Below, piece after piece: positions 12,978 through 53,337 of a DNA stretch of 60,000 nt (positions are counted from its first letter, which is position 1; every line of letters starts with the position of its first letter). Origin of the DNA: Candidatus Pacearchaeota archaeon (lineage in GTDB: Archaea > Nanobdellota > Nanobdellia > Pacearchaeales > GW2011-AR1); contig JBBDJR010000006.1 in the NCBI GenBank assembly GCA_040879785.1, positions 130,410 to 190,409 on the forward strand. The letters are read 5' to 3'. The position numbers and the translations under genes are program-made. The notes beneath the pieces were generated by a model, which saw only the letters and a program-made list of their open reading frames with translations, ran no database searches and was not told the DNA's origin.

Positions 12978-13496
12978 ATGAAAAAAATCCAGGGACAAAT
13001 CATAGGGGAAAATGTTTTAACTAATTCTTCAGAAGCATTTTCATTATACAAAAAAAGGCATTTCGGAGAACCGTTAGGAGAAAAAATACAATACTCTCTT
13101 TCAGAAGCTCTTTTCCTCGTTGAAGAAAAAAAGATAGAAACTCTCCAGGGGAAAAAAGCCCTTTCATTTGATGAACTAATGAACAAGGCAAGGAGACAGG
13201 ACAAAAGAATTCATGTTAAATATCCTGTATTTAGAGACTTAAGAAAGAAAGGATATGTAGTAAAGACTGCGCTAAAATTCGGGGCAGATTTCAGAGTCTA
13301 TGAAAAAGGGTCAAAGCCGGGAACAAAACACGCAAAGTGGATTGTTTTCTCTGATCACGAATCAAAAAGAGTTACCTGGCACGAGTTCTCTGCAAAAAAC
13401 CGTGTAGCCCACAGCACAAAAAAAAATCTTCTGCTGGCCATCGTCGACGAAGAAGGTGACGTGAGCTATTATGAAGTAAAGTGGATTAAGCCTTGA
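12978..13496 (+). CDS. endA: tRNA-splicing endonuclease
   Basis: 172 aa with LSEALFLVEEKKIE, VFRDLRKKGYVVKTALKFGADFRVYEKG and HAKWIV. This matches the archaeal EndA catalytic subunit layout. Confidence 0.85.
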   Translation: MKKIQGQIIGENVLTNSSEAFSLYKKRHFGEPLGEKIQYSLSEALFLVEEKKIETLQGKKALSFDELMNKARRQDKRIHVKYPVFRDLRKKGYVVKTALKFGADFRVYEKGSKPGTKHAKWIVFSDHESKRVTWHEFSAKNRVAHSTKKNLLLAIVDEEGDVSYYEVKWIKP

Positions 13497-13552: not shown

Positions 13553-15154
13553 ATGCAAGAAAGAAAGTTGTCTTTAATTGAAGCAGCAAGGTGGGCTACA
13601 GAATATTTAGGGAGGCCAGTCACCCCTTCAAACATTTCTTACCTAATACAATACGCAAAAATAAGAAAACATCTTGAGAGATTAAACATTCATGTAAGTT
13701 TGGAAGAGTTGAAAGAATATTATGACAAAAATGTCCTGAAAAAACAAAACCAATGGAAACAAAAGTTAGGGGACGACTTAAATTGGAGTCTTTCTTTTGC
13801 CCATTTAAGAGAATCTGATACCACAAAACATGTCCATAGACTACACCCATATAAAGGAAAATTCATTCCTCAGTTAGTAGAATATTTCCTAGATTCTCAT
13901 TTAAACACATTTAAGAAACAAATCTTTTTCAAAGAAGGCGATATAATTCTTGACCCTTTTATGGGTAGTGGTACAACTCTTGTCCAGTCATCTGAATTAG
14001 GTTTACATTCTATAGGCATTGATGTTTCCGATTTTAATTGTTTAATGTCCAAAGTCAAAATAGGAAAACATGATTTAGTTAAGTTGGATAAGATGGCACG
14101 AGATATCTGTTTCAAAACAAGAGAATTCAGCCAAAAAGCATTTGATGATTCTTTTGATAATCAATTAAAAGAAAGATTAAACGAGTTTAATAAAAGTTAT
14201 TTTCCGAATCCTGAATTTAAACGAGATGTTTGGAAAGGCAGAATAAAAAATGAAAAACAATATGGAGAAGAAAAACTCAAACAATTCTTAAAGGAAAATA
14301 AAGATTTTTTTGAAAAGAATGGAACAAAAGATTCTTCAGAATTATTTAGTGAAAAAAAGATGAATAATTTCTTGTATAAGTGGTTTTCTAAGAGAGTTAG
14401 GCAAGAGCTATTTTATTATATAAAATCTTTAGAAAAAATTGAAGATGAAAGATTAAAAGATGCTTTAATGGTTATTTTGAGCAGAACCGCTCGTTCATGT
14501 AGGGCCACAAAACATTCAGACTTGGCTACACTTACAGAGCCACAAATTGGACCTTATTATTGCCCAAAGCATAAAAAAATATGCACTCCAGTAAATTCAA
14601 CAATTAAGCATTTAATAAGATATACTTATGACACTATAAAGAGATTGAAAGAATTTTCACAACTTAAAAAAGATGTTCACTCCGAAGCAATACATGGAGA
14701 CTCAAGAGAAGTAAATATAATTGATGAAATAAAAAAGCAGAATCCTGAATTCGGTAAGATTATTGAAAATAAAAAGATAGATGGAATTTTTACTTCTCCC
14801 CCTTATGTTGGCCAAATAGATTATCACGAACAACATGCTTATTCTTATGAGTTATTTGATATCCAAAGAGAAGACAATAAAGAAATAGGTCCATTATACA
14901 AAGGAAGAGGAAAACAGGCAAGAGATGAATATGTTGAAGGCATAAGCAGAGTTTTAAGAAATATTAGCAGATTTGTAAAAGATGAGGGACATTTTTTCAT
15001 TGTTGCGAATGATAAATATAATCTCTATCCTTTGATTGCAGAGAAAAGCGGTTTGAAGATTATTGATAAATTCAAGAGGCCTGTTTTGAATAGGACTGAG
15101 AAGGACAGACATCCTTATAGTGAGATTATTTTTCATATGAGGAAAAAATTATAA
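13553..15154 (+). CDS. DNA methyltransferase (N4-cytosine or N6-adenine class; SPPY catalytic motif)
   Basis: The SAM-binding motif ILDPFMGSGTTLVQS comes first and the catalytic motif IDGIFTSPPYVGQIDY comes about 270 aa later. The N-terminus is HTH-like. Confidence 0.8.
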   Translation: MQERKLSLIEAARWATEYLGRPVTPSNISYLIQYAKIRKHLERLNIHVSLEELKEYYDKNVLKKQNQWKQKLGDDLNWSLSFAHLRESDTTKHVHRLHPYKGKFIPQLVEYFLDSHLNTFKKQIFFKEGDIILDPFMGSGTTLVQSSELGLHSIGIDVSDFNCLMSKVKIGKHDLVKLDKMARDICFKTREFSQKAFDDSFDNQLKERLNEFNKSYFPNPEFKRDVWKGRIKNEKQYGEEKLKQFLKENKDFFEKNGTKDSSELFSEKKMNNFLYKWFSKRVRQELFYYIKSLEKIEDERLKDALMVILSRTARSCRATKHSDLATLTEPQIGPYYCPKHKKICTPVNSTIKHLIRYTYDTIKRLKEFSQLKKDVHSEAIHGDSREVNIIDEIKKQNPEFGKIIENKKIDGIFTSPPYVGQIDYHEQHAYSYELFDIQREDNKEIGPLYKGRGKQARDEYVEGISRVLRNISRFVKDEGHFFIVANDKYNLYPLIAEKSGLKIIDKFKRPVLNRTEKDRHPYSEIIFHMRKKL

Positions 15155-15895
15155 GTAAATGAAATCATTAACCTCGAATATTTCTTTAAAGAACTTTGGT
15201 TGTTTTCCTCCTTTTTCTGGAGATTTTTGGATAATTTCATAAGTTTTATCTATACTGCTTTTACTAAAATCTGGGAGAGTTTTTATCATGATGTTTACTA
15301 AAACAAATGCAAGAATTGATGAGTTTGAATGCCTTTCAAATCTCCTTTGAATATAAAATTTAAGTAAATTATAATTCTTAGAAGGAACGGATTTATCATT
15401 AACATAATCAAAAAATTCAAAACATCCAATAAAATGTATTCCTTGGGAACCCCTAAATTTATTTCTTGCCTTTCTAAAAAGCCCATCAACTTTATTTAAG
15501 ATATTCTTTGGTGTGGACTTTAATTTAGTCATTTCAACATAGAAATGCTCATTTCCTTTGGATAGCTTTGCCTCTGGAACAAAATTCCCGTTTGGATTAG
15601 AATGCTTTAAAACAATAAAATCTACTTTATTGAGTAGATTATCCAAAACCATTAACTCAAATAAAATATCTTCAAAATTGTTTCTAGATGTTTTAGCATC
15701 CAATACCCATTGTGAAAATCCTTCAATGTCTTCAAATTTTTTGATAAGTTTCTCTATTTTTTCTAAAAGATAATGTGCAGGTTTTGTAGATACTTTTTCT
15801 TTCTCACTTTTTTTAATCCAATTCTTACTTTCAATAGATTCTATTTCTCTATTCAACCATTCTTCTCCTAGATGTTTATTAATATTTTCATACAT
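15149..15895 (-). CDS. hypothetical protein within R-M island (possible nuclease)
   Basis: 248-aa ORF between the methyltransferase and the endonuclease. The segment FVPEAKLSKGNEHFYVEMTKLK is only loosely PD-(D/E)XK-like. Confidence 0.5.
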   Translation of the reverse strand: MYENINKHLGEEWLNREIESIESKNWIKKSEKEKVSTKPAHYLLEKIEKLIKKFEDIEGFSQWVLDAKTSRNNFEDILFELMVLDNLLNKVDFIVLKHSNPNGNFVPEAKLSKGNEHFYVEMTKLKSTPKNILNKVDGLFRKARNKFRGSQGIHFIGCFEFFDYVNDKSVPSKNYNLLKFYIQRRFERHSNSSILAFVLVNIMIKTLPDFSKSSIDKTYEIIQKSPEKGGKQPKFFKEIFEVNDFIYL

Positions 15896-15898
15896 TTT

Positions 15899-16672
15899 CT
15901 AAACACCCATCTTCTCCTCTGCAACTTCTTTAATCTTCTTTTGAATTTTACCCTTAAACTCCTTTCCAACTTCATCAAAGATTTCTAAAAGTTCCTCATA
16001 GGTTCCTTTCCCTCCTAAAAGCTCCCAGAACTTCTCTGCAACAAAGAGTTCATTTTCTTCATCTAAATAGCCCTGAATTGTAAATCTGCTATAAGGTTCT
16101 GGATGATAAGGATTATAAGGAATTGCTAAGATTGTATTTACTTTCTTTTTTCTGAGTGCAATCCATTCTAATAATTTCTGTTTTGATTTGACAAAAACAT
16201 CTATATTGGGTTTTGCTGTTTTTATCTCAATATAGTATTCCTCACCTCCTTTCCTTAAGAATAAATCCGCTCTGACCCTTATTTTTCTTCCGCCATTATT
16301 GTTGCATTCTAAAATTTCCTTTATTTCCTTTTCTTTATCGGATGTTCTCGTTCTGCTTTTTATTTCTTGGAGAATTTGAGAAATTATAGAATTTTCTTCG
16401 TTTGTAATTTCTCCTTCGACATCATGGCCTGTTCTAACTTCATCATAATGCGTTGAAGCTACAATTGCAGAAATTTTCTCATAAACAGACATTCCTAATG
16501 TCGTAGATAATGAATGTATGAATGAATAAGATGCTACCTTTTCAGAGTCTTGCATGAGCTTTACTAAAAAGGGCATAGAGGTTGTTTCCCTTACATATTT
16601 AGACAACTTATCATTTAGCTTTGTTCTTAACAGATTTTTGATTCTGTTTACCTGTTTATCAGTCAAGGTCAT
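15899..16672 (-). CDS. type II restriction endonuclease-like protein (PD-(D/E)XK; resembles TdeIII/MjaII-type enzymes from memory)
   Basis: SMPFLVKLMQDSEKVASYSFIHSLSTTLGMSVYEKI, followed by RADLFLRKGGEEYYIEIKTAKPNIDVFVKSKQKLLEW (D...EIK core). It lies adjacent to a DNA methyltransferase. Confidence 0.6.
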   Translation of the reverse strand: MTLTDKQVNRIKNLLRTKLNDKLSKYVRETTSMPFLVKLMQDSEKVASYSFIHSLSTTLGMSVYEKISAIVASTHYDEVRTGHDVEGEITNEENSIISQILQEIKSRTRTSDKEKEIKEILECNNNGGRKIRVRADLFLRKGGEEYYIEIKTAKPNIDVFVKSKQKLLEWIALRKKKVNTILAIPYNPYHPEPYSRFTIQGYLDEENELFVAEKFWELLGGKGTYEELLEIFDEVGKEFKGKIQKKIKEVAEEKMGV

Positions 16673-18172: not shown

Positions 18173-18245
18173 GGCTCCATAGCTCAGTTGGAAGAGCGCG
18201 TCTCTCATGAGGACGAGGTCCCGGGTTCGGTTCCCGGTGGAGCCA
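18173..18245 (+). tRNA. tRNA with CAU anticodon (elongator Met or Ile2)
   Basis: GGCTCCA/TGGAGCC acceptor, GCTC/GAGC D stem, CGTCT/GGACG anticodon stem, loop CTCATGA, CCGGG/CCCGG T stem. The T loop TTCGGTT has G instead of the usual A at position 58. It does not look like an initiator. Confidence 0.85.
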
Positions 18246-19083
18246 TTAATCTCTCAAACCTCAAATTGATGGGTTCTCTAATAGGTTTATGATTTGAGGA
18301 TGGAACTCCTTTAATAGATTGATTGTACTCCCGATCATAATTCATAAAGTCAAGAAACTTTTTATGGTGTTTCAGATTTACAAAACCTATTTCTTTCTCG
18401 AAAAGTAGTAGATTTTTCTTCCCATTAAACTGAAATCGGTATTGATCCTGAACAACATTCCACCTAGGATCTGGCCTTGACTTACAGAAATAGTGATTAC
18501 CACTCATCCCTAAACTCTGGAGATAATCATGAATCTCCTTGATTAACTGTTTGTGAATTGTTCTTGATTCAATTCTTGGGTAATATTTATTTGGATTTTT
18601 CGTTAGGACAAAACTCCCGTCAGTTGCAAAAAATCCTTGAACAACATGTTTTAATAAATTTTTCTCATAGAACAGTTTAGGTATTTTTAGATTAGCTCCT
18701 TTCTTTCCCACAGGGAAACCAGAAGAAGAAATCAAATCAAAAAGCTCGGCATCTATGAAATTAAATTCTATTGCATTACAATCTTTCCTAAACTTCAAGT
18801 TTGTATTTTTCTCTCTAAAGTAGACTAAAAGAGGGGAAACAATTTCTTGGAAGAAGGATATATCATCTATAGAAGATCCTGTTATTGCAATAAACTTCTT
18901 TTTACCATTAACCAAACTCAAGCAACCATCCCCCATTATTATTCCGCATAAAAGTGCAAATTTTTCTTCATCATTCATAGATTCTAAAGATAGGACCATT
19001 TTATTTTTTCCTAAGATATGTTTTAATAAATCCTTCAAGGACTTCCCATATATTTTTCCTTTCTTTTTTAACTTTAGAAACAA
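18205..19083 (-). CDS. LAGLIDADG homing endonuclease-like protein (double-motif, monomeric type)
   Basis: Two LAGLIDADG motifs are present: LLCGIIMGDGCL and VVQGFFATDGSF. The last ~13 codons (MAPPGTEPGTSSS) are antisense read-through of tRNA-CAU, so the real C-terminus is uncertain. Confidence 0.8.
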   Translation of the reverse strand: MFLKLKKKGKIYGKSLKDLLKHILGKNKMVLSLESMNDEEKFALLCGIIMGDGCLSLVNGKKKFIAITGSSIDDISFFQEIVSPLLVYFREKNTNLKFRKDCNAIEFNFIDAELFDLISSSGFPVGKKGANLKIPKLFYEKNLLKHVVQGFFATDGSFVLTKNPNKYYPRIESRTIHKQLIKEIHDYLQSLGMSGNHYFCKSRPDPRWNVVQDQYRFQFNGKKNLLLFEKEIGFVNLKHHKKFLDFMNYDREYNQSIKGVPSSNHKPIREPINLRFERLMAPPGTEPGTSSS

Positions 19084-24386: not shown

Positions 24387-24965
24387 TTATTTAATAAAAT
24401 CTAGTATTTCAGGAATTTTCTCAACATCATCTTCCTTTGTAAAGTGTCCCTGCTTCTTCTTAATAATTATCTTTGCCCCAAGATTCTTTTTAAATTTCTC
24501 TGCTTCATCAAGATGGACTTCAGAATCATCGTCGGAGAATATGCCCATGAAATTATTACAATGATCTAATATTCTGGAAAAACCAATCTTTGTATTCATC
24601 CAGGGATGTGCAATTTTCATTTCTTCAGGACTCTGATTAATAAGATCAAAAAAGCCAGCTACAAAAACACATCCAGCAATTTTCTTATGTCTATGCAACT
24701 TTTCCAAGAACCTCATAATAGTCTGACATCCTATTGAGTGTCCTACAAAGTAAGTTTGCTCATCAATTTCATCAGAATCAATATTTTCTCTCAAAAACCC
24801 AACCCATTCCTCAATCTTAGGGTGGTCTGTATTAGGCATATCAAAAATAATAACATTAAACCCTTTATTCTCAAGCTCTTTTTTAAGCCATGGAAACCAG
24901 GGTTCACTTTCAGAACTTCCACCCCATCTGTGAATCAAATATACTTTTTTATTCTCTTTTTTCAT
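24387..24965 (-). CDS. alpha/beta serine hydrolase (YdeN/RBBP9-like)
   Basis: VYLIHRWGGSSESEPWFPWLKKELE and the nucleophile elbow FVGHSIGC; 192 aa. Confidence 0.75.
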   Translation of the reverse strand: MKKENKKVYLIHRWGGSSESEPWFPWLKKELENKGFNVIIFDMPNTDHPKIEEWVGFLRENIDSDEIDEQTYFVGHSIGCQTIMRFLEKLHRHKKIAGCVFVAGFFDLINQSPEEMKIAHPWMNTKIGFSRILDHCNNFMGIFSDDDSEVHLDEAEKFKKNLGAKIIIKKKQGHFTKEDDVEKIPEILDFIK

Positions 24966-24972
24966 TTTCTTA

Positions 24973-24992
24973 AGCGAGGAGTGGGGTTTGAA
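24973..24992 (-). pseudogene. tRNA-Cys-like 3' end fragment (T loop, T stem 3' strand and acceptor 3' strand)
   Basis: The minus strand reads TTCAAACCCCACTCCTCGCT, versus the genuine tRNA-Cys 3' end TTCGAATCCCACTCCTCGCT at 28763-28782. Confidence 0.7.
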
Positions 24993-25026
24993 TGAGAACC
25001 TCCTGCAGGTTCTTCACAACTCCAGC
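24990..25026 (-). repeat. 37-nt tRNA-trailer hairpin element, copy A
   Basis: The minus strand reads GCTGGAGTTGTGAAGAACCTGCAGGAGGTTCTCATTC, identical to 28795-28831 (plus strand). It contains the stem AGAACCT/AGGTTCT around GCAGG. Confidence 0.85.
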
Positions 25027-25041
25027 TTCCCGAATCCTTCA

Positions 25042-25182
25042 TGCGGGCGAAAGGATTCGAACCTTTGTAAGCACTAAGCTAACAGGTTTCTTCGAGGTCC
25101 GTTTGCGTTATTATTATGCTGATAATCTCTTGCAAATCTACTCGCCTAAGCCTGTCCCGTTTGACCACTCCGGCACGCCCGC
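25042..25182 (-). tRNA. tRNA-Leu (UAG) with ~57-nt intron at the canonical 37/38 position
   Basis: GCGGGCG/CGCCCGC acceptor, ACAGG/CCTGT anticodon stem, loop CTTAGG|intron|A, long variable arm (TAGCTTAGTGCTTAC), AAAGG-TTCGAAT-CCTTT T arm and discriminator A. Confidence 0.8.
25088..25144 (-). other. tRNA-Leu intron
   Basis: This sequence lies between anticodon-loop G37 and A38. The internal helix CGAG/CTCG flanks the junctions. The exact splice sites were not determined. Confidence 0.6.
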
Positions 25183-25247
25183 ATAGAAATAAAGAATTAT
25201 TTTAGTATAAAAAGATATTGATATGGGATAGGATTTAAGGATGGAAA

Positions 25248-25260
25248 GATATTTAAATTA
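25248..25260 (+). promoter_or_regulatory. TATA-box-like promoter of the small 2-TM gene
   Basis: GATATTTAAATTA lies ~20-30 nt upstream of the ATG at 25279. GGAAA-ATATTTAAAT is conserved with the paralog promoter at 38121-38137. Confidence 0.4.
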
Positions 25261-25278
25261 ATTTATATTGATAAGGAA

Positions 25279-25473
25279 ATGTCAAACAAATTAGCTGTTG
25301 TTGGTTCTGTTTTATATCTTTTGTTTGGTTTATACCTGATAAACGCTTCTTTTGTCTTTGTTCCAATGCCAAACTTTATTGAATCGATTGATAGTTGGAT
25401 TGTTTTAATAGCAGGAATATTGGTTATTCTTGGTGGAGTAAATTATTTCAGGGCTAACAAGAATCCTTATTGA
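25279..25473 (+). CDS. small 2-TM membrane protein (paralog of 37894..38100)
   Basis: 64 aa. It aligns with the 68-aa protein at 37894-38100 (LYLLFGLYLIN...W IVLIAGILVILGGVNYF versus LYILFAIYFLN...W IIFIGGILLVFGGFSFF). Confidence 0.6.
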   Translation: MSNKLAVVGSVLYLLFGLYLINASFVFVPMPNFIESIDSWIVLIAGILVILGGVNYFRANKNPY

Positions 25474-25488
25474 TTTTGGAGAATTAAA

Positions 25489-25689
25489 GTGCTAAAGAAC
25501 AAAAAAAGAAAAATAAGAGAATTGTGGGTTGAGAGCGGATGGACTAGTTTTGCGTTGTTTGTTATATTTTTGGCGATTTATATTAGCAGGTTTATTAGAG
25601 ATCTAGAAGCGACAGGATACTTATACATTTCAATAGGTCTTTTTATAGCTTCGGTAATCCAGTTAGGAATGAAGTATAAGAAAAAATAA
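25489..25689 (+). CDS. small 2-TM membrane protein
   Basis: 66-aa ORF with a GTG start and two hydrophobic helices. Confidence 0.4.
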   Translation: MLKNKKRKIRELWVESGWTSFALFVIFLAIYISRFIRDLEATGYLYISIGLFIASVIQLGMKYKKK

Positions 25690-25713
25690 GATTAATTACA
25701 TTATGTAAGTATA

Positions 25714-26640
25714 TTACTTCTTCGCTTTGACTTCGGCTTCTTTCTGTTTTATTTTTTCTTCGAGGTCGAGTTTTTCTATAAGCTCTTTGTATCTGTTTCT
25801 TATTGTAACTTCTGTTATCCCTGCAATGTCTGCGACTTCTCTTTGAGTTTTTTTCTCGTCGTTTATTAATGCGGCAACGTAAAGTGCGGCGGCGGCGATT
25901 CCTGCAGGGCCTCTTCCCGATGTTAGCTCAACACCCTCTGCTTTTTTTAGAACTTTGAGCGCGTCGTTTTGAGCTTTTGGAGATAGTTTTAGAACTGAAG
26001 AGAATCTTGAGATGTAGTCTTTTGGGGAGCTTTGCGTGACTTTTATTCCGAGTTTTCTTATGATGAATCTGTATGTTCTTCCGATTTCTTTTCTTTCAAC
26101 GTCGGATGCTGTTGCCATTTCGTCAAGAGTTCGCGGGATGTTGTAGCTTCTGCAGGCGGCGTAAAGACATGCGGCAATTACAGATTCCATGCTTCTTCCT
26201 CTTACGAGACCTCTTTGGAGAACGAAGTTGTAAATTCTTGATGCCTCGTCTCTGACGACGTTTGGAAGGTTTAGGTAGGAAGCGATAACCCTTAGTTCAG
26301 CCATTGCGAGTCTTAGATTTCTTTCAATAGAAGTTGAAACTCTCTCCTGCCATTTTTTAAGTCTTAAGAATTTTCTTGTTTGTTTTGGGTCTAATCTATA
26401 AATATCGGAGATTTCACCGACGTTAGTTGTAAGCCCTTTGTCGAATTTTTGCATGCTTGAAGGCGCTCCGCCACGACCTTTTTTCTCCCCTTTATCGAAT
26501 TTTCCTTGTAAATCTACACCAGAATCAACCATTTTTTCTTCTACAACAAGACCACAATCATTACAAATTATTTCTCCGAGGTGAGGATCATAAGTAAGAT
26601 TTATACTTTCACATTCAGGACATTTTTTTATAGAGGTCAT
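25714..26640 (-). CDS. tfb: transcription initiation factor IIB (TFB)
   Basis: Zn ribbon CPECES...CNDCG, B-reader/linker, and two cyclin-fold repeats (SRIYNFVLQRGLVRGRS, AAALYVAALINDEKKTQREVADIAGITEVTIRNRYKEL). Confidence 0.95.
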   Translation of the reverse strand: MTSIKKCPECESINLTYDPHLGEIICNDCGLVVEEKMVDSGVDLQGKFDKGEKKGRGGAPSSMQKFDKGLTTNVGEISDIYRLDPKQTRKFLRLKKWQERVSTSIERNLRLAMAELRVIASYLNLPNVVRDEASRIYNFVLQRGLVRGRSMESVIAACLYAACRSYNIPRTLDEMATASDVERKEIGRTYRFIIRKLGIKVTQSSPKDYISRFSSVLKLSPKAQNDALKVLKKAEGVELTSGRGPAGIAAAALYVAALINDEKKTQREVADIAGITEVTIRNRYKELIEKLDLEEKIKQKEAEVKAKK

Positions 26641-26702
26641 TTGAGTTGTTTTTTAGCCATTTTAAGACTAAAGAAATTTTGTTACTTCGAGGTTGGTAAA
26701 AA

Positions 26703-26755
26703 GGTTTATAAACCAACTTTGTACAGCGTTTATAAACTTTTCGTCATTTATAAAG
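26703..26755. promoter_or_regulatory. three TTTATAAA boxes upstream of tfb
   Basis: GGTTTATAAACC (26703-26714, a perfect 12-nt palindrome), GTTTATAAAC (26728-26737) and ATTTATAAAG (26746-26755), located 63-115 nt upstream of the tfb ATG. Confidence 0.4.
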
Positions 26756-26798
26756 CTTTCGGTTTTTATTCTCGGAGAGTATGGTTTCAGAACTAGGT

Positions 26799-27164
26799 TT
26801 ATTCGTTTTCAATAAGGATACCATTAACAACACTTTCCTGGCTTGGTCTGTTTGTGATTCTTACTTTTCCTTTATCTGTCTCAACGATTGTACCTTTTGT
26901 AAGTATGTTTTGTCTTGCAAGGAATCTATTTGACGGAGTTTCAATAACGTTTTTTATTTCAAGTTTTTGATTTTTGTCTTTTATTTTTACGTTAATAAAT
27001 TTTGATTTAAGCAAAGATGTTTTTATGTTTCCGCCCCGCACTCTGTATGTTTTTCTTTTGTCTTCTCCGAGTTTTGTTGTCCTTTTTTGTCCTTCTCTTT
27101 CGTAGAGCTTTTTACTTCTATGCTTTTTGTACTTTCCGCCCGTAGTCTTTATTCCTTTTCTCAT
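26799..27164 (-). CDS. rps8e: 30S ribosomal protein S8e
   Basis: MRKGIKTTGGKYKKHRSKKLYE..., GGNIKTSLL, and a C-terminal ITNRPSQESVVNGILIE. Confidence 0.9.
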   Translation of the reverse strand: MRKGIKTTGGKYKKHRSKKLYEREGQKRTTKLGEDKRKTYRVRGGNIKTSLLKSKFINVKIKDKNQKLEIKNVIETPSNRFLARQNILTKGTIVETDKGKVRITNRPSQESVVNGILIENE

Positions 27165-27318
27165 GTTAAAGATGAAAAGCTTTAATTTAAATAGGTTTCT
27201 GTTTGAAGATTTTTTGAAAATGAGGCAGATGTGTTCTTGTAAATGCAGAACCGAAGAATTTATAAATAAACCAATAGAATATTCTATATAAATATTCCAT
27301 AATTTGGAGTTTAATAAA

Positions 27319-27567
27319 ATGGTTAACGGAATTGAAAGACCTCTAGATCTTTTAAATAATTCGAAAGGAAAGGAAGTGCTTGTTCACTTGAAAGGCGATA
27401 AGCAGTTTGTAGGAACATTGTTAGCTTTTGACATTCATGTGAATCTTGTTCTTGATAATATAAAAGAAATGGAAGGTGGCGAAGTAAAAAGAAATCTTGG
27501 ACTTACATTTCTTAGAGGAGACACAATAATTTTCATTTCTCCTGCCTCTACTGCTTTGAAGAAGTAG
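27319..27567 (+). CDS. Sm-like archaeal protein (SmAP/LSm)
   Basis: Sm1 motif VLVHLKGDKQFVGTLLAFDIHVNLVLDN and Sm2 motif LRGDTIIFIS. The ATG at 27319 is preferred over the TTG at 27304. Confidence 0.85.
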   Translation: MVNGIERPLDLLNNSKGKEVLVHLKGDKQFVGTLLAFDIHVNLVLDNIKEMEGGEVKRNLGLTFLRGDTIIFISPASTALKK

Positions 27568-27613
27568 TTATAATTTTAGTTACTTTTATTAATTAGATTT
27601 TGCTTTATTATTT

Positions 27614-28516
27614 ATGGCAGAAAAAGTAAAAATACATTTTTTGGGAACAAGTGATTCTGTTCCGAGCGCTGGAAGAAACCATCCTTCAATCTGGCTGAGT
27701 TATGAGAGAGAGAATATTTTGATTGATTGTGGGGAAGGGACGCAGAGACAGATTCGGAAGGCGAGATTAAATCCGTGCAGGATAACAAGGATTTTGATTA
27801 CTCATTGGCACGCAGATCATATTTTAGGAATTCCAGGATTGTTGAAAACTCTGGGGATGAGCGGTTACAACAGAACTTTACATATTTATGGGCCACGAGG
27901 AACTAAGAGAAAATTGGAATCTTTGAGGGACTTGTTTGGAGTCAGAGAGGAATATCCCATTAAGGTAAAAGAGGTTTCAGGAAAATTCTTGGAGGAGGAT
28001 GATTTTTATATTGAATCTGAAGAGATGACTCACGGGACTCCTTGCAACGCGTATTCGTTTGTTTTAAAAGGCAAGACGAGAATCGACAAGAAAAAGATTG
28101 AGAAGTTTAAGATTCCGACGGGGCCTCATATGAAAAAACTGAAAGAAGGAAAAGATATAACTTACAAAGGGAAAAAATATTCCGCAAAGAATTTGACTTA
28201 CACAGAGGAAGGGAAGAGGGTTTCAATTGTTTTGGATACGGCTTTAAATGAGAGGATTGCGCCTTTTGTTAAAGAGTCTGATGTTTTTGTGTCAGAGTCT
28301 ACGTTTGATTCCGGGCATGAGGATAAAGCAAGAGAGTATAAACATCTCACCTCAGAGCAGGCAGCGCGAATTGCGAAGAAAGCGAAAGTTAAGAAGCTTT
28401 ATCTGATTCATGTCAGCCAGAGATTTTCAAAGAATTTTAAGGCTGTGCTGCAGGAAGCTAAAAAGGTTTTCAAGGAAACGAGCCTGCCTAAGGATTTGGA
28501 TTCTGTTGAGGTTTGA
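27614..28516 (+). CDS. rnz: ribonuclease Z (tRNA 3' endonuclease, metallo-beta-lactamase fold)
   Basis: FLGTSDSVPS, IDCGEGTQRQ, ITHWHADHILGIPGLL, and a C-terminal LIHVSQRF. Confidence 0.85.
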   Translation: MAEKVKIHFLGTSDSVPSAGRNHPSIWLSYERENILIDCGEGTQRQIRKARLNPCRITRILITHWHADHILGIPGLLKTLGMSGYNRTLHIYGPRGTKRKLESLRDLFGVREEYPIKVKEVSGKFLEEDDFYIESEEMTHGTPCNAYSFVLKGKTRIDKKKIEKFKIPTGPHMKKLKEGKDITYKGKKYSAKNLTYTEEGKRVSIVLDTALNERIAPFVKESDVFVSESTFDSGHEDKAREYKHLTSEQAARIAKKAKVKKLYLIHVSQRFSKNFKAVLQEAKKVFKETSLPKDLDSVEV

Positions 28517-28581
28517 TTAAATGATTTTAAGATAAACAAAACATTTTAAATACAATTTCTTCTTAGATTTTTAGCTTAGAT

Positions 28582-28634
28582 GCCCTTGTTTGGACAAGTC
28601 TGGACGAATAAAGGTGGGCGAGCGAAGCAAGTGA
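28582..28634 (+). repeat. GC-rich leader element upstream of tRNA-Arg that begins with a degenerate copy of the tRNA 5' end
   Basis: GCCCTTGTTTGGACAAGTCTGGACGAATAAAGGTGGGCGAGCGAAGCAAGTGA directly precedes GCCCCTGTAGCTC. It shares the TCTGGACGA and GCGA..GCA.GTGA motifs with the Val and Thr leaders. Confidence 0.55.
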
Positions 28635-28708
28635 GCCCCTGTAGCTCAGCTGGATAGAGCAACTGACTTCTAATCAGTAGGTCGCAGGTTCAAATCCTGT
28701 CGGGGGCA
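28635..28708 (+). tRNA. tRNA-Arg (UCU)
   Basis: GCCCCTG/CGGGGGC acceptor, GCTC/GAGC D stem, ACTGA-CTTCTAA-TCAGT anticodon arm, GCAGG-TTCAAAT-CCTGT T arm. Confidence 0.9.
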
Positions 28709-28711
28709 TTT

Positions 28712-28782
28712 GCGGGGATGGCGAAGTGGTTACGCGCTCGGCTGCAACCCGAGTAACGTGGGTTCGAATCCCACTCCTCGCT
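28712..28782 (+). tRNA. tRNA-Cys (GCA)
   Basis: GCGGGGA/TCCTCGC acceptor, CTCGG-CTGCAAC-CCGAG anticodon arm, GTGGG-TTCGAAT-CCCAC T arm, and discriminator U as expected for Cys. It lies 3 nt after tRNA-Arg. Confidence 0.9.
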
Positions 28783-28794
28783 TGGATTTGGGAC

Positions 28795-28831
28795 GCTGGA
28801 GTTGTGAAGAACCTGCAGGAGGTTCTCATTC
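28795..28831 (+). repeat. 37-nt tRNA-trailer hairpin element, copy B
   Basis: GCTGGAGTTGTGAAGAACCTGCAGGAGGTTCTCATTC is identical to copy A in inverted orientation. Confidence 0.85.
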
Positions 28832-28848
28832 GGGTCCTTTCGCCCGCA
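28829..28848 (+). pseudogene. tRNA-Leu-like 3' end fragment
   Basis: Compare TTCGGGTCCTTTCGCCCGCA (then TGAA) with the genuine tRNA-Leu 3' end TTCGAATCCTTTCGCCCGCA (then TGAA). Confidence 0.7.
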
Positions 28849-28852
28849 TGAA

Positions 28853-38137: not shown

Positions 38138-38153
38138 CCTCGAAGCAATTTTG

Positions 38154-38195
38154 GGTCCTGTGGTCTATGTCGGCCACGCCTGGACGATATCATAA
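38154..38195 (+). repeat. GC-rich leader element upstream of tRNA-Val starting with a copy of the tRNA 5' end
   Basis: GGTCCTGTGGTCTATGTCGGCCACGCCTGGACGATATCATAA. Its first 15 nt match the tRNA-Val start GGTCCCGTGGTCTAG at 14/15. It can fold as nested stems GTCC/GGAC and GTGG/CCAC. Confidence 0.6.
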
Positions 38196-38358: not shown

Positions 38359-39282
38359 ATGGTTAAGAAAGTTTCATTTATCCATGCTTCTGATTTTTTA
38401 AATGTTGTAGAAAATCAAAATAAGGTACTTTTAGACATTCTTGATAAAGAAATATATTATTACAATAAGGAATGCAAATTCTCTGAAGCAAGAAGTTTAA
38501 TAAAAATTAATAAAATTTTCAAAAAATTAAACAAAAAAGAGCTTTTGTCTATCCAGAATAGAATAATTGACATAGAAAGTATCCTAAAATCAAATCTCGA
38601 TAATTCTCTTAATCTTGTCTTATCTGGTTCAACAACAAAGGGAACTTACATCCACAGATTAAGTGATGTTGATATTTTAATAATGTTAAACAAAAGCTTC
38701 TTTTTTAATAAAAAACCAGAGATAATTCAGAAGAAAGTATTAGACATATTGAAAAGATCTTTTCCAGAACAAAAAATAAAAAGGGATCACGAGGCAATTA
38801 ATTTTTTTATTGAAAAGAGGATTAAGATTCAATTTGTTCCTGTTATATTTAAAAAGGGGAAAATATATTTTCCAAAAAGGGAAGAGAAGACTTGGAAGAA
38901 AATACATCCTGAAATATTTGGTAATTTATTAACAAAACAGAACAAAAAATTTAATAAGAAAATCAGCGTTTCTATAAAAATTATTAAAGCTATCATTACA
39001 AAGTTTCCTAAAAAGTTGAGACTCAATAACCACCACCTAGAAGTTTTAATGTATTTATTTTCTAAAGAATCTTCAAATAAAAACAAGGATTTTTTGAATT
39101 TTATTTCAAATTTCTTTTTTTACACTTCAAAAAGAATTATGGAACCTATCGAAGATAGTTCAAAACAATTTGAATTTATTGATGAATATATGGGAAAATC
39201 AGAAAATTCAAAAAGGAAAATAATTTCTAAAAAATTAAAAGAGATTTCAAAACAAATAAAAGAAAACAAAATAAGTTTATGA
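38359..39282 (+). CDS. Pol-beta-superfamily nucleotidyltransferase, SMODS/CD-NTase-like
   Basis: LVLSGSTTKGTYIHRLSDVDILIML (GS...DxD), a later strand IKIQFVPV, and WKKIHPEIFGNLL...SVSIKIIKAII resembling the helical part of second-messenger synthase-like NTases; 307 aa. Confidence 0.55.
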   Translation: MVKKVSFIHASDFLNVVENQNKVLLDILDKEIYYYNKECKFSEARSLIKINKIFKKLNKKELLSIQNRIIDIESILKSNLDNSLNLVLSGSTTKGTYIHRLSDVDILIMLNKSFFFNKKPEIIQKKVLDILKRSFPEQKIKRDHEAINFFIEKRIKIQFVPVIFKKGKIYFPKREEKTWKKIHPEIFGNLLTKQNKKFNKKISVSIKIIKAIITKFPKKLRLNNHHLEVLMYLFSKESSNKNKDFLNFISNFFFYTSKRIMEPIEDSSKQFEFIDEYMGKSENSKRKIISKKLKEISKQIKENKISL

Positions 39283-43975: not shown

Positions 43976-44042
43976 ATTTAATGATAAGTCACTTCCTAAA
44001 CAAGAAATCTTTTAAACTAATTCTGCCCTTAAGTTTTAGTCT

Positions 44043-44167
44043 GCCTGTGAACTCTGTGCCGGCCGCGCTTGGATGGTGCAGTAGCAAACAGGTGAGCAAA
44101 ACGAGCCTGTGTAACTCTAAGCCGACCTCGCCAGGGCGGTTTTGTAGCGAACAGGCGAACGCAGTGA
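44043..44167 (+). repeat. two tandem GC-rich leader units upstream of tRNA-Thr, each starting with a copy of the tRNA 5' end
   Basis: Unit 1 (44043-44104) is GCCTGTGAACTC...ACAGGTGAGCAAAACGA. Unit 2 (44105-44167) is GCCTGTGTAACTC...ACAGGCGAACGCAGTGA. The genuine tRNA GCCTGTGTAGCTC follows. Each unit has a GCCTGT/ACAGG(C/T) closing stem. Confidence 0.65.
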
Positions 44168-44239
44168 GCCTGTGTAGCTCAGTGGTAGAGCGGCTGCCTT
44201 GTAAGCAGTAGGTCGGGGGTTCAACTCCCTCCACAGGCT
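44168..44239 (+). tRNA. tRNA-Thr (UGU)
   Basis: GCCTGTG/CACAGGC acceptor, GCTC/GAGC D stem, GCTGC-CTTGTAA-GCAGT anticodon arm, GGGGG-TTCAACT-CCCTC T arm. Confidence 0.9.
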
Positions 44240-44254
44240 TTGGGGAGTTGGGAA

Positions 44255-44291
44255 GCTGGAGGTGTGAGGAACCCGCAGGAGGTTCTCATTC
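44255..44291 (+). repeat. 37-nt tRNA-trailer hairpin element, copy C (3 substitutions)
   Basis: GCTGGAGGTGTGAGGAACCCGCAGGAGGTTCTCATTC matches 34/37 to copies A and B. One change (A to G) keeps the stem as a G.U pair. Confidence 0.8.
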
Positions 44292-44354
44292 AACTCCCTT
44301 GGCTGGACCACGCTTGGGCAGTCAAGAGTGAATCTCATAAACTCTCCACAGGCT
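44289..44354 (+). pseudogene. tRNA-Thr-like 3' end duplicate interrupted by a 44-nt insert
   Basis: Compare TTCAACTCCCT [TGGCTGGACCACGCTTGGGCAGTCAAGAGTGAATCTCATAAACT] CTCCACAGGCT with the genuine TTCAACTCCCTCCACAGGCT. Confidence 0.65.
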
Positions 44355-44365
44355 TTTAAGAAAAA

Positions 44366-52316: not shown

Positions 52317-52389
52317 TAGCCCCACCAGGATTCGAACCTGGGTCACGACCTCCAAAGGGTCGTATCTTTGACCGCTAGACTATGGGGCT
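52317..52389 (-). tRNA. tRNA-Gln (UUG)
   Basis: AGCCCCA/TGGGGCT acceptor (A1-U72 as in archaeal tRNA-Gln), GTCT/AGAT D stem, CGACC-CTTTGGA-GGTCG anticodon arm, CCAGG-TTCGAAT-CCTGG T arm. Confidence 0.88.
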
Positions 52390-53337
52390 TCAAAAGTTCC
52401 ACTTATTAACTTTATTTAAATGTCTCGAATTATGAAATCCAATTTGTTTTAAAAACTTTCTTAGTTCAGATTTCTTAGTTATATACACTTTATTTCCTTT
52501 AGTGATTTTTGAAGGCACAATTCCTAAAATCTCCAAAGATTCCTTCACATCTCTCAACAAAGTTAGATTAAAATTAGTGAAAACTATTTGATATGTATTC
52601 TGATTGTTAAGTTTATAGATCCCTCCATCTGTATCATATAATCCTCTTAAACAGGCTGCCAAAAAGCGATGGTTTTCTTTAATCCATTTAGGGATACCTA
52701 GCCGATTCTTTATCTTATTACCTGGTTTGAATCCCTTCTCCTCCAAAAAATTTACTAGCCTAACTCCATACGCAACTAAAAACATAGCATTACGAGAATT
52801 TTTGAAGTTTTCTTTTGGATTGAACTTTCCTGAATTAACTTTTATATTAAATAATTTTTCAATTAGGGATTTCACATAATTAATGAGGTAATCCTCATCA
52901 TGCCTCGAATCCCCAACAACCCTAATAACGTAAGTTCCTCGTTTATTCATTCTTGACTCATAGAATTGCGTCTTGTGTGAATTACCGTCCCCCAACATTA
53001 TTCCAAAAAATTCTGCCAGTTTCACAGAGTCTTTAGGAATTTTTATTGTTTTAGTATTCCCTTTTGAATTTTTTCCTCCCTTAGATTGCCCCCAATTATC
53101 TCCAATTTTTTCAGAGATAAATTTATCAAAATCTCTATTTACCATCTTGCAAATTTTTCTATAAAGAACCTCATCCAATAATCTTACTTCATTTCTTAAT
53201 TCGTTTCTTAAGTAACCCTCTGAAACCCCTAATAATTTAGATAATTGTGACCAGGAATAATCTTTTTTTAAGAGACTTATCATTTCTCTCTGCTTTCCTT
53301 TAACAAATTTCAATCTCATCCTAAAATTAAGAAGCAA
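52390..53337 (-). CDS. LAGLIDADG homing endonuclease-like protein with N-terminal HTH
   Basis: Two LAGLIDADG motifs: LAEFFGIMLGDGNS and CLRGLYDTDGGIY. The N-terminus has SWSQLSKLLGVSEGYLRNEL. The stop codon (52390-52392) abuts nucleotide 1 of tRNA-Gln. Confidence 0.8.
   Translation of the reverse strand: MLLNFRMRLKFVKGKQREMISLLKKDYSWSQLSKLLGVSEGYLRNELRNEVRLLDEVLYRKICKMVNRDFDKFISEKIGDNWGQSKGGKNSKGNTKTIKIPKDSVKLAEFFGIMLGDGNSHKTQFYESRMNKRGTYVIRVVGDSRHDEDYLINYVKSLIEKLFNIKVNSGKFNPKENFKNSRNAMFLVAYGVRLVNFLEEKGFKPGNKIKNRLGIPKWIKENHRFLAACLRGLYDTDGGIYKLNNQNTYQIVFTNFNLTLLRDVKESLEILGIVPSKITKGNKVYITKKSELRKFLKQIGFHNSRHLNKVNKWNF

Follow-up and report, generated by a model that had tools for sequence, protein, structure and literature searches.

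A conserved 40-nt element as the probable core of protein-less insertion units in DPANN archaea

A nearly invariant element of about 40 nt, (GGAT)GCTGGAGNTGTGARGAACCYGCAGGAGGTTCTCA, here called E, is very probably the conserved core of tiny, protein-less insertion units (~45-130 nt) now spreading among DPANN archaea; in all likelihood it is no signal for pre-tRNA processing. The DNA records insertion, duplication of the target, an inverted copy of part of that target, spread across loci and phylum-level lineages, decay and renewal of copies, and a gene order flipped between two of them. Three copies lie in the 60-kb window (the whole stretch of DNA that was analysed)—at 24990-25026 on the minus strand, and at 28795-28831 and 44255-44291 on the plus strand—and 38 copies were counted across the loci compared. 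The family appears to be undescribed; literature searches by keyword and by sequence string found no description of E.

The initial annotation had placed a 37-mer 12-15 nt behind tRNA-Leu, tRNA-Cys and tRNA-Thr, and for all three copies (n=3) the pattern search and the tRNA coordinates agree with this: E starts 15 nt 3' of the tRNA in the Leu locus, 12 nt in the Cys locus and 14-15 nt in the Thr locus. The tRNA-Leu gene was detected by Rfam only, tRNA-Cys and tRNA-Thr by both ARAGORN and Rfam. All three copies match the annotation's degenerate pattern with 0 mismatches, a pattern that found 0 matches in 100 shuffles and has a chance expectation of 0. The stem proposed at the same time, seven base pairs of AGAACCT with AGGTTCT, is present in two of the window copies; the Thr copy has 6 bp with a 7-nt loop, as does nearly every copy outside the window, and its GAACCC variant is the usual form elsewhere.

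Young units share one layout, X1 - loop - rcX - linker - E - X2, where X is a duplicated stretch of 11-25 nt of the target and rcX repeats 7-11 nt of X in inverted form; X2 resumes 0-2 nt past the ...GGTTCTCA (CTCA) end of E. The duplications, often imperfect, measure 11, 14, 17, 18, 20, 21, 22, 23 and 25 nt; direct repeats counted from +0 after E run for 14-23 nt (p <= 0.008 against cross-locus controls), and 45-66 nt separate the two repeats in at least 10 independent loci. In tRNA targets (n=9 cases) X extends from G53/T54 to a point 1-4 nt beyond the tRNA; thanks to its upstream copy the tRNA stays whole, and the 3' end that the gene had before is shifted downstream. Positions in the window are collected in Table 1.

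Table 1. Features of the three E loci in the window.
Feature	Position	Strand	Detection or comparison
tRNA-Leu(UAG) with 57-nt canonical intron; X1 of the Leu unit	25042..25182	-	Rfam 45.9 bits
rcX(Leu) AAGGATTCG + linker GGAA + E core	24990..25039	-	
Displaced original tRNA-Cys 3' end (TTCAAACCCCACTCCTCGCTT), then Ser-hydrolase gene as in relatives	24972..24992	-	
tRNA-Cys(GCA), intact; X1 of the Cys unit	28712..28782	+	ARAGORN; Rfam
rcX(Cys) TGGATTTG + linker GGAC + E core	28783..28831	+	
Displaced original tRNA-Leu 3' end (TTCGGGTCCTTTCGCCCGCATGAA); trailer TGAA common to the live tRNA-Leu gene	28829..28852	+	
Segment inverted relative to relatives: tRNA-Leu, TFIIB, S8e, LSM, RNase Z, tRNA-Arg, tRNA-Cys	25027..28794	.	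gene order vs L056, L058
Original tRNA-Thr 5' fragment behind promoter, then two tandem 63-nt 'F' insertions	44042..44175	+	repeat comparison
tRNA-Thr(UGU), intact; T-loop-to-3'-end = target copy X1	44167..44240	+	ARAGORN; Rfam 74.8 bits
rcX(Thr) GGGGAGTTG, inverted copy of T-loop/T-stem CAACTCCC(C)	44242..44250	+	
Linker GGAA + E core, Thr copy	44251..44291	+	pattern search
X2 stub TTCAACTCCCT	44289..44299	+	direct repeat of 44220-44230
Partial 'F' repeat copy (AACTCCCTTGGCTGGACCACGCTTGGGCAGT...), initially presumed acceptor strand	44293..44329	+	resembles start of 63-nt units at 44050, 44113
Decayed older E tail (GAATCTCAT) + original displaced tRNA-Thr 3' end and T-run (AAACTCTCCACAGGCTTTT)	44330..44357	+	

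This layout changes the meaning of what had first been described as a locus-specific clamp, the pairing of the spacer before E with the T-loop copy after it. The complementarity is where it was reported (GGGAGTTG at 44243-44250 with CAACTCCC at 44291-44298; AAGGATTCG from 25039 to 25031 with CGGGTCCTT at 28831-28839), but the spacer is an inverted copy of the T-loop and T-stem of the tRNA just upstream, and is therefore complementary to that tRNA as well. In the Thr locus rcX can pair with either 44223-44231 or 44291-44298 (RNAduplex -21.9 kcal/mol, the best among 28 units). Because the clamp is simply rcX pairing with X2, it would be a by-product of insertion; the proposal that locus-specific complementarity implies a selected structure gives way to an inverted target copy made at insertion, and many copies have no clamp.

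Close relatives carry intact empty sites behind the same three tRNAs. In two of them (L056 and L058, with RNase Z 74-78% identical) neither tRNA-Leu nor tRNA-Cys is followed by E; the tRNA-Leu ortholog in L056 has neither intron nor E, and in L058 tRNA-Cys (...TTCAAATCCCACTCCTCGCT) abuts the ATG of the Ser-hydrolase gene. In two others (L060 and L061, with NDK 82-87% identical) tRNA-Thr is directly flanked by its own promoter and T-run, E is absent, and the promoter TTTTAAACTAATT...(A/G)C stands immediately 5' of GCCTGTGTAGC. On this comparison of sequences, the E units are lineage-specific insertions. No hairpin trails the tRNAs that lack E, namely Met, Val and Gln. Two early suggestions fit broadly with these results: a relic of an integrative element that copies the tRNA 3' end agrees with the empty sites and with a duplication running from T54 past the 3' end, and the site of a tRNA-targeting element agrees with lineage-specific insertion and, again, the empty sites.

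Among the closest known parallels to such a footprint are the att duplications left in archaeal tRNA genes by plasmids and viruses with SSV/pNOB8-type integrases. In both, a direct repeat extends from the T-loop to past the end of the tRNA; a live tRNA gene persists, and what had been its 3' end lies farther along as a fragment that can later mark rearrangements. Williams reportedly recognised, in 2002, a T-loop sublocation of tRNA integration sites. The units might then be attL/attR scars of kb-sized integrative plasmids or viruses with a T-loop-class tyrosine integrase, with E adjoining attP—a reading that we consider improbable. The imperfect duplicated blocks do resemble attL/attR pairs, the 3' ends of protein genes are duplicated with synonymous differences only, and an inversion between copies would be like the integrase-driven inversions of Thermococcales. 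An integration model for tRNA fragments is also known from Caldiarchaeum (PMC3293823). However, an insert of merely 45-66 nt, with no integrase or other gene in it, contrasts with att-bounded elements, the surroundings of 31 loci showed no integrase, and E is absent from viral and plasmid collections (no exact match in IMG/VR, one chance hit among phages, none among plasmids). Normal excision would be scarless; rcX, being locus-specific, cannot be the fixed end of an element; many units stand 5' of ATGs with no tRNA-like repeats; and, unlike att duplications, the E core also occurs where ORFs end or start, at the 5' ends of tRNAs and in an intron.

Decay and renewal are recorded in the Thr locus. 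A second tRNA 3' end had been read after every copy of E; it exists in the Leu and Cys loci, where the two are swapped, but the post-E stretch of the Thr locus holds just 11 tRNA-derived nt, TTCAACTCCCT. The supposed Thr acceptor strand, TTGGCTGGACCA, belongs instead to another repeat that is also present twice upstream of tRNA-Thr; this 'F' repeat occurs in the window and in the closest relative, L059, only, and each 63-nt insertion of it upstream of the tRNA terminates in a copy of the tRNA 5' end. The true displaced tRNA-Thr 3' end lies at 44339-44357, behind the decayed E tail, with a direct repeat CTCCACAGGCTTT at 44229-44241 and 44344-44356. Both the 44293..44329 stretch (~85% identical) and the 44330..44357 stretch have orthologous counterparts in L059. 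At its Thr site L059 has an E remnant, 55% identical and without rcX, within flanks that are ~85% identical, which makes the Thr copy in the window a renewal. Degenerate older copies beside intact ones are found at L020, L015, L004, L008 and L049 as well as at window position 44330.

The Leu and Cys units hold each other's tRNA 3' ends—Cys-type (24992 to 24972) behind tRNA-Leu, Leu-type (28829-28852) behind tRNA-Cys—because the 3.8 kb between their E copies, which are in inverted orientation, is flipped relative to L056 and L058. In those relatives a big ORF on the forward strand is followed by tRNA-Leu, TFIIB and S8e in reverse, and then by LSM, RNase Z, tRNA-Arg, tRNA-Cys and the Ser-hydrolase gene, all forward; in the window the inner block is reversed. 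Judged from the assembled sequence, the flip may have happened in the chromosome or may have arisen in assembly, through an error across the 41-nt inverted repeats. Other contigs of the same genome or sample are short-k contigs that all end inside E, and none of those from this genome gives independent assembly support for the inversion. Integrases such as that of pTN3 drive inversions in Thermococcales, and Cossu et al. reportedly described integrase-driven inversions there in 2017. Galileo in Drosophila is an example of transposon-mediated chromosomal inversion (PMC2775673). As in transposon and integrase inversions, the breakpoints fall in two inverted copies of a mobile repeat and the flanking duplications are exchanged; unlike in those, the window repeats are only ~41 nt and no recombinase was found.

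Outside the window, near-identical E is present at no fewer than 29 distinct loci, in MAGs of Pace-, Woese-, Nano- and Aenigmarchaeota; across 8 DPANN MAGs and 28 metagenome contigs it is 97-100% identical, and the flanks are ~50% identical. It follows tRNA-Arg (L030), two consecutive tRNAs (L032) and tRNA-Glu (L041); it lies at a tRNA 5' end (L005), 3' of an ORF whose last five codons are duplicated (MPSYT-stop/MASYT-stop; L021/L034/L015), and immediately 5' of the ATG of ftsY, GAPDH, L24e and other genes. In three species (L033/L051/L054) it sits antisense within the canonical intron of tRNA-Thr(GGU), where intron bases outside E form the relaxed BHB and E is an antisense passenger. About 60% of units lie away from tRNAs; a search for the 37-mer together with its neighbours places most of the additional copies off tRNAs, many with no flanking complementarity, which is largely the outcome that the initial annotation had named as refuting its reading. 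At ftsY (L048/L049), at the ORF end (L015/L021/L034) and within the Thr(GGU) intron, species that have diverged carry E at one and the same site, which could reflect an old insertion retained by selection, not repeated insertion. Units also carry old flanks along: GTGCCGAAGGCGGAT in L020/L042 is an L021-type flank without its hairpin, and CAACTTCCTGTTGGGAT, carried by L001/L048/L033, is a Thr T-loop hairpin that has collapsed, the relic of an earlier flank. Tandem arrays of E are present, with 13-72 nt spacers that are copies of each other or of flanks.

These contexts bear on whether E and its clamp form a functional RNA in the pre-tRNA 3' trailer, either as a processing or quality-control signal or as a switch, with rcX paired either to the T-arm of the tRNA itself or to the decoy copy X2. 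Such a role could explain the sense orientation behind 9 tRNAs with a copy always from T54, the invariance of E beside saturated flanks, and the EndA (12978-13496) and RNase Z (27614-28516) genes nearby. Within the paired stretch, 7/8 of the differences between X1 and X2 keep the pairing with rcX through G.U, and L015 and L021 differ by two compensatory changes in the X1:rcX hairpin; these changes hint at some constraint on the RNA, for which a purely selfish model has no need. Even so, we hold a trailer RNA to be very unlikely. Relatives process the same tRNAs without E, ~20/28 units have no clamp, most units are off tRNAs, and E also lies antisense within the Thr(GGU) intron and, elsewhere, at the 5' end of a tRNA. 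Copies have decayed or given way to others, the units fold with ordinary z-scores (+0.4 to -1.9), and no covariation of the E stem was seen among the collected copies; a stable RNA structure was rejected on the z-scores. With Rfam 15 at gathering thresholds, the window and 26 loci gave tRNAs and one 5S rRNA only, and in a permissive scan over the Thr unit the best match over E, sR33, reached 10.7 bits where its threshold is 37.

Several other identities were considered and set aside. A CRISPR repeat does not agree with one intact copy per locus, with no regular arrays and with no cas domains in the window or in 107 neighbouring ORFs; a K-turn or C/D box, judged by eye, would have its G.A pairs and D box out of place; and a tRNA-like fold of E has the wrong position 33. 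Third codon positions of E are invariant while second positions vary, so conservation acts at the nucleotide level and a coding peptide was rejected. All three window tRNAs are full-length and in a single piece, and the fragments after E are duplicates of existing 3' ends, which dismisses a split or permuted tRNA gene. Archaeal BHB introns share with E the recurrence of similar short sequences in different tRNA genes, and E does lie in the canonical tRNA-Thr(GGU) intron of three species; Fujishima et al. reportedly wrote in 2010 of 'intron transposition' of archaeal tRNA introns in Thermoproteales. In contrast to such introns, the window units lie outside complete upstream tRNAs (Cys and Thr 66-75 bits, Leu 46 bits), their predicted folds contain the clamp or the hairpin but no bulge-helix-bulge, and the intronic E is antisense.

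Among mobile elements, E resembles MITEs and REP/REPIN sequences in being short, non-coding, multi-copy, hairpin-forming, intergenic, dependent on functions in trans and a substrate for inversion, and, as with MITEs, it is present or absent among relatives (empty in L056, L058, L060 and L061). It differs from MITEs by having no terminal inverted repeats of its own—its ends are (GGAT)GCTGGAG... and ...GGTTCTCA, and the sole flanking inverted repeat is rcX/X. Its target duplications are imperfect and, at 11-25 bp, both long and variable, with no fixed short length as in MITEs; one end of the unit is sharp and the other ragged, and the core is conserved across phylum-level lineages. With SINE-like retroposons that use TPRT, E units have in common a fixed 3' end, a ragged 5' end with upstream sequence and relics of earlier loci, target duplications of variable length, 3' junctions with microhomology, and a lack of coding capacity; however, no RT domain was found near any copy, and no A-tail or internal promoter is known. 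We know of no SINE-like retroposons described in archaea. Casposons are archaeal and insert at the 3' ends of tRNA and protein genes as E units do; they span 8-20 kb and have terminal inverted repeats, Cas1, PolB and fixed ~14-15 bp duplications. E units, in contrast, are ~45-130 nt with duplications of variable length, and no Cas1 or PolB genes or terminal inverted repeats were found.

No protein that could move the units came to light: a Pfam scan of the 60-kb window found no transposase, integrase, reverse transcriptase or Cas1, and the top 25 Pfam families among 107 ORFs <=3.5 kb from E in 31 loci included no recombinase, transposase, RT or Cas1. For the route of insertion we tentatively favour polar copy-and-paste with snap-back synthesis, in which units would be copied from a template whose fixed end is the E 3' end; this is a possible account, with considerable doubt attached. 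The target would be cut with a long stagger, its free 3' end would fold back on itself to generate rcX and then copy E, and the unit would be joined to the target via a 3-nt microhomology (TTC or ATG), much as in target-primed reverse transcription. Selection may act as a survival filter, keeping only insertions that regenerate a gene end or land just 5' of a start codon. A Shine-Dalgarno motif precedes 1/38 window genes, which excludes it as the usual start signal of this genome; before a start codon, the GGAGG of E could act as a ribosome-binding site, in a genome that is leaderless otherwise.

Two other routes were considered. Units could move as folded single strands of DNA or RNA whose X:rcX stem mimics a double-stranded target, with one strand exchange followed by replication; precedents are the CTX phage with XerCD and integron attC sites. 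The topology of that reaction, as deduced from the architecture, would give exactly X1 - loop - rcX - rest - X2, and both the hairpin in E and the unit size of ~75-130 nt suit it; however, rcX would be needed before insertion, calling for a new stem at each change of target, and the units have reached many unrelated targets while carrying old flanks, with no linked recombinase found. The chance that this is the route seems slim. We give equally little credence to the absence of any dedicated mobility, whereby fragile tRNA and gene ends would be repaired at forks or breaks by template switching with E as a favoured ectopic template. The 'F' core, which left the same duplication and inverted snippet at the 5' ends of tRNA-Thr and tRNA-Val, the junction microhomology and the tandem arrays are all in its favour, but random templates would hardly yield one nearly invariant 34-nt sequence in four DPANN lineages and dozens of loci, and the sharp 3' boundary at ...CTCA speaks for a defined end.

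If the insertion units are confirmed, DPANN archaea would harbour a cross-phylum, ultra-conserved, protein-less insertion element with a distinctive footprint—a long, variable target duplication together with an inverted target copy. It would explain stray tRNA 3' fragments and "extra T-arms" in DPANN genomes, mark the ends of a local chromosomal inversion, shift promoters and terminators away from tRNA genes, put a Shine-Dalgarno sequence before genes in an otherwise leaderless genome, and have entered at least one tRNA intron. Those who assemble and annotate DPANN MAGs should be prepared for contigs that break, and may be mis-oriented, at E repeats. The units would also provide a system for asking how archaeal tRNA genes gain introns and fragments, and how mobile DNA is tolerated by small genomes whose intergenic spaces are tiny. 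It is a speculative and, on present evidence, unlikely further step that these protein-less units are a new kind of archaeal mobile element whose insertion signature by itself supplies the paired and duplicated segments for a bulge-helix-bulge. Were this true, a unit would turn into a spliceable intron on landing within a tRNA gene and would yield tRNA fragments on landing at its edge; the tRNA-Thr(GGU) intron, which in three species is largely an E unit in antisense, would show such intron gain at work, and the exchange of 3' ends in the window would begin a path to split or rearranged tRNA genes.

The conserved 37-mer noted in the initial annotation (its core is called E below) matches exactly three places in the window when searched as a degenerate pattern, with no match in 100 dinucleotide shuffles, and each copy lies 12-15 nt behind a tRNA gene, as had been described. 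The window's Met, Val, and Gln tRNAs, which have no element, are directly followed by AT/T-rich sequence with no hairpin. The complementary octamers and nonamers quoted for the spacer are present at their coordinates, and the spacer does pair with the copy after the element; however, it is itself the reverse complement (rcX) of a stretch in the tRNA that immediately precedes it, the T-loop/T-stem 3' strand. A copy of the tRNA 3' end was said to follow each element. This holds at tRNA-Leu and tRNA-Cys, but with the types swapped—a Cys-type end stands behind the Leu unit, and a Leu-type end, whose TGAA trailer matches that of the live tRNA-Leu, behind the Cys unit. At tRNA-Thr it holds only partly: the acceptor strand does not follow directly, only TTCAACTCCCT there is tRNA-derived, and the TTGGCTGGACCA... 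after it is part of a different repeat, two further tandem copies of which precede tRNA-Thr. The genuine Thr 3' end (AAACTCTCCACAGGCTTTT) has been displaced to a site past a decayed element tail.

Coordinates of features in the window and in compared loci (L handles)
Feature	Position	Strand	Remarks
37-mer copy	28795-28831	+	degenerate pattern match; tRNA-Cys upstream
37-mer copy	44255-44291	+	degenerate pattern match; tRNA-Thr upstream
37-mer copy	24990-25026	-	degenerate pattern match; tRNA-Leu upstream
tRNA-Cys	28712-28782	+	ARAGORN and Rfam; just upstream of E copy
tRNA-Thr	44167-44240	+	ARAGORN and Rfam; just upstream of E copy
tRNA-Leu(UAG), intron-containing	25182->25042	-	Rfam alone; upstream of third E copy
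tRNA-Leu(UAG) ortholog	L056 3997-4081		no intron
Displaced tRNA-Thr 3' end	44339-44357	+	behind decayed element tail
Fragment TTCAAACCCCACTCCTCGCTT	24992->24972		before Ser-hydrolase gene (ATG at 24965)
Degenerate copy beside intact E	window 44330; L020, L015, L004, L008, L049
tRNA-Thr(GGU) with E-bearing intron	L033 2-147; L051 516-659; L054 899-1044
F repeat, 63 nt	44042-44175		two tandem insertions at tRNA-Thr 5' end
Weaker F relative	38150-38195		precedes tRNA-Val
F-like leader motifs	28575-28634		precede tRNA-Arg
Insertion in L059	L059 2330-3874		vs window 43976-44040
Restriction-modification pair	13553-16672
SMODS/nucleotidyltransferase-domain ORF	38359-39282
LAGLIDADG-domain ORF	18205-19083	-	overlaps 3' part of tRNA-Met
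tRNA-Met	18173-18245		opposite strand to that ORF
LAGLIDADG-domain ORF	52390-53337	-	ends exactly at tRNA-Gln 5' end
tRNA-Gln	52317-52389		same strand as that ORF

Relatives offer empty sites for comparison. By nhmmer, tRNA-Leu and tRNA-Cys carry no trace of the element in L056 (from GCA_040879805.1) or L058, whose RNase Z proteins are 74% and 78% identical to that of the window. In L058 the tRNA-Cys end ...GGGTTCAAATCCCACTCCTCGCT runs straight into a Ser-hydrolase gene, and in the window the same gene is preceded by a Cys-type fragment; this fragment is therefore the original tRNA-Cys 3' end, displaced by insertion. Likewise, L061 and L060 (NDK 82% and 87% identical) show the ancestral state of tRNA-Thr: the promoter TTTTAAACTAATT... 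directly precedes GCCTGTGTAGC..., and a T-run comes after ...CCACAGGCT. The closest relative, L059 (NDK 91%), has only a 55%-identical E remnant with no rcX at the Thr site amid flanks that are ~85% identical, so the perfect Thr unit of the window is a recent renewal rather than an old conserved feature. L059 also has a 514-aa gene and ~140 nt of spacer inserted between NDK and the promoter of tRNA-Thr, so this neighbourhood has been rearranged again.

The swapped Leu and Cys fragments are explained by a flipped segment. Gene order in L056/L058 is large ORF > <tRNA-Leu <TFIIB <S8e LSM> RNase Z> tRNA-Arg> tRNA-Cys> Ser hydrolase> UPF0047> ... aaRS>; the outer genes of the window are collinear with it, whereas the tRNA-Leu-to-tRNA-Cys block is reversed, and this block is exactly the interval between two inverted element copies. 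Recombination within the 37-41 identical bases would leave each rcX with its own tRNA and exchange everything right of the crossover, which is the pattern seen. The flip could instead be an assembly artefact, with the segment between inverted repeats mis-oriented by the assembler; the only other contigs of the same genome available for comparison come from short-k assembly and break off within the element. The window tRNA-Leu(UAG) has a 57-nt canonical intron, with no similarity to E, that its L056 ortholog lacks, a difference that reflects recent gain or loss.

Young units share the order X1 - loop - rcX - linker - E - X2, where X1 and X2 are the upstream and downstream copies of the duplicated target, X2 starts right after ...GGTTCTCA, and the linker is GGAT/GGGAA or a longer relic. 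Own-locus direct repeats exceed cross-locus controls (p <= 0.008) in L005, L021, L030, L032, L034, and window Thr. In each of the nine tRNA cases X runs from G53/T54 to a point 1-4 nt beyond the tRNA, and rcX ends ~2 nt before reaching X's left edge. A unit has a sharp 3' boundary and a ragged 5' side with relics of earlier locations—the L020/L042 flank GTGCCGAAGGCGGAT is an L021-type ORF end minus its hairpin, and in L001, L048, and L033 CAACTTCCTGTTGGGAT is what is left of a Thr T-loop hairpin that has collapsed. Among units with a common 5' relic, the three bases that follow E (TTC or (T)ATG) tend to agree, which suggests joining to the target by microhomology. Degenerate older copies sit beside intact ones, distal to the functional gene end. 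L035 and L041 have a longer unit subtype (~125 nt), in which an extra 12-15-bp hairpin (e.g., AAAGTATTCTTGT...ACAAGAGAATACTTT) stands between the tRNA 3' end and E, together with a linker that is AT-rich and runs up to E with the ending ...TAATTCWGGTT.

Exact-pattern scans found E in eight DPANN MAGs labelled Woesearchaeota, Nanoarchaeota, and Aenigmarchaeum, and on 28 metagenome contigs, but in no viral contigs; the remaining 18 genome matches were chance matches in bacteria. Some 29 units were left once duplicates were removed, and across loci the 34-nt core is 97-100% identical, against ~50% for the flanks. Units stand behind tRNA-Arg in L030 (followed by a 23-nt repeat of its 3' end), behind two consecutive tRNAs in L032 (own 3' ends repeated over 22/22 and 19/20 nt), and behind tRNA-Glu in L041, again with a copy of its own end. 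In L005 E is antisense at the 5' end of a tRNA, where 14 nt are perfectly duplicated. In three species antisense E lies within the canonical 37/38 intron of tRNA-Thr(GGU), and the full Rfam tRNA model spans 144-146 nt. This ~73-nt intron is largely an antisense E unit: E abuts the 5' splice site, and at the opposite end the anticodon-loop sequence recurs in degenerate form. E also follows an ORF in L021, L034, and L015, where the last five codons and stop (MPSYT*/MASYT*) are repeated with synonymous differences only, and lies 0-3 nt before the start codon (ATG) of unrelated housekeeping genes such as ftsY (two species), GAPDH, and L24e. No recurrently linked protein family was found near E loci. 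In L031/L040 and L052, a short ORF just upstream of GAPDH and another gene starts at a decayed gene-start copy, reads through E as M(M)N(N)IMDAG[A/T]VKNPQEVLI*, and ends in an ATGA overlapping the real start codon, a layout compatible with translational coupling.

Most of the evidence speaks against E being a structured, functional RNA. The proposed locus-specific clamp, measured between the 24 nt upstream and downstream of E in 28 units, is strong in only ~8 and absent where units precede genes. For E alone and for whole units, minimum free energies fall within ~2 sd of shuffled sequences; the stem never covaries and, having been described as 7 bp, is one pair shorter in most copies; and E has no consistent orientation relative to the neighbouring gene. 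Seven of eight X1/X2 differences within the paired stretch keep pairing with rcX, mostly as G.U, and L021 differs from L015 by two compensatory changes in the X1:rcX hairpin while X2 stays GTTATAC. Neither is required by a purely selfish reading; a modest explanation is that selection may keep rcX sequestered, sparing the tRNA or stop region.

We infer a polar copy-and-paste process from four features: units end sharply on the 3' side, have a ragged, transducing 5' side, are flanked by duplications of variable length (11-25 nt), and show 3 nt of microhomology at the junction. A nick in one target strand at the X left edge would let its 3' end prime on the 3' end of an E template, RNA or DNA; the other strand would be cut at a distance of 11-25 nt, and the single-stranded 3' end so formed would snap back on itself and be extended to the duplex junction, yielding rcX, before switching to the new E copy. 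As modelled, these steps reproduce every junction. Alternatively, a folded single strand recombines, its stem mimicking the target; or templates switch at fragile sites; or the units are scars of integrase-borne elements. The 60-kb window encodes no integrase, transposase, reverse transcriptase, or Cas protein.

Selection in a compact genome can account for much of the gene-boundary distribution, since the target duplication regenerates the gene in gene-end insertions. A Shine-Dalgarno-like motif occurs in 1 of 38 window ORFs, and AT-rich, TATA-like boxes lie close to most start codons, so that mRNAs probably lack leaders for the most part. A leader would arise from any insertion that separates promoter and ATG; the GGAGG within E, placed 6-9 nt ahead of the next ATG, would account for surviving upstream copies lying directly against the start codon. 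A real target preference is still indicated by the fixed T54 boundary and by recurrent hits at particular sites.

Read antisense, a second small repeat, F (core GCCGRCCNCGCYWGG...GTAGCRAACAGGYGA), shows the layout of E units, a duplication plus an inverted snippet. Each window copy at tRNA-Thr ends in a copy of the first 8 nt of this tRNA, and the tandem pair has pushed the tRNA-Thr promoter ~125 nt upstream; L059 has one copy, L060 and L061 none. Ahead of tRNA-Val lies a weaker relative together with a duplicated 5' fragment (GGTCCTGTGGTCTA), and F-like leader motifs precede tRNA-Arg. Two LAGLIDADG ORFs also adjoin tRNA genes; in this genome selfish DNA seems to land at such genes generally. 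The window's gene content is archaeal (TFIIB, S8e, S3Ae, Gins51, EndA, RNase Z), and the closest proteins to its RNase Z and NDK are those of Pacearchaeota MAGs. The window also holds an N6/N4 DNA methylase and TdeIII-type endonuclease pair with an unassigned ORF in between, and an ORF for a CBASS-like cyclase (SMODS) that comes right after tRNA-Val, with glycosyltransferase and methyltransferase genes beyond it.

E is in no Rfam family, no searched literature, and no viral or plasmid record. Its footprint overlaps with those of tRNA att-site duplications of archaeal integrative elements, MITE/REP-type repeats, SINE-like retroposition, and casposon insertions, but it lacks at least one defining feature of each. 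We rate the E unit as a small non-autonomous insertion element targeting gene ends, especially tRNA genes; the E-bearing Thr(GGU) intron allows that such insertions may seed tRNA introns and fragments.
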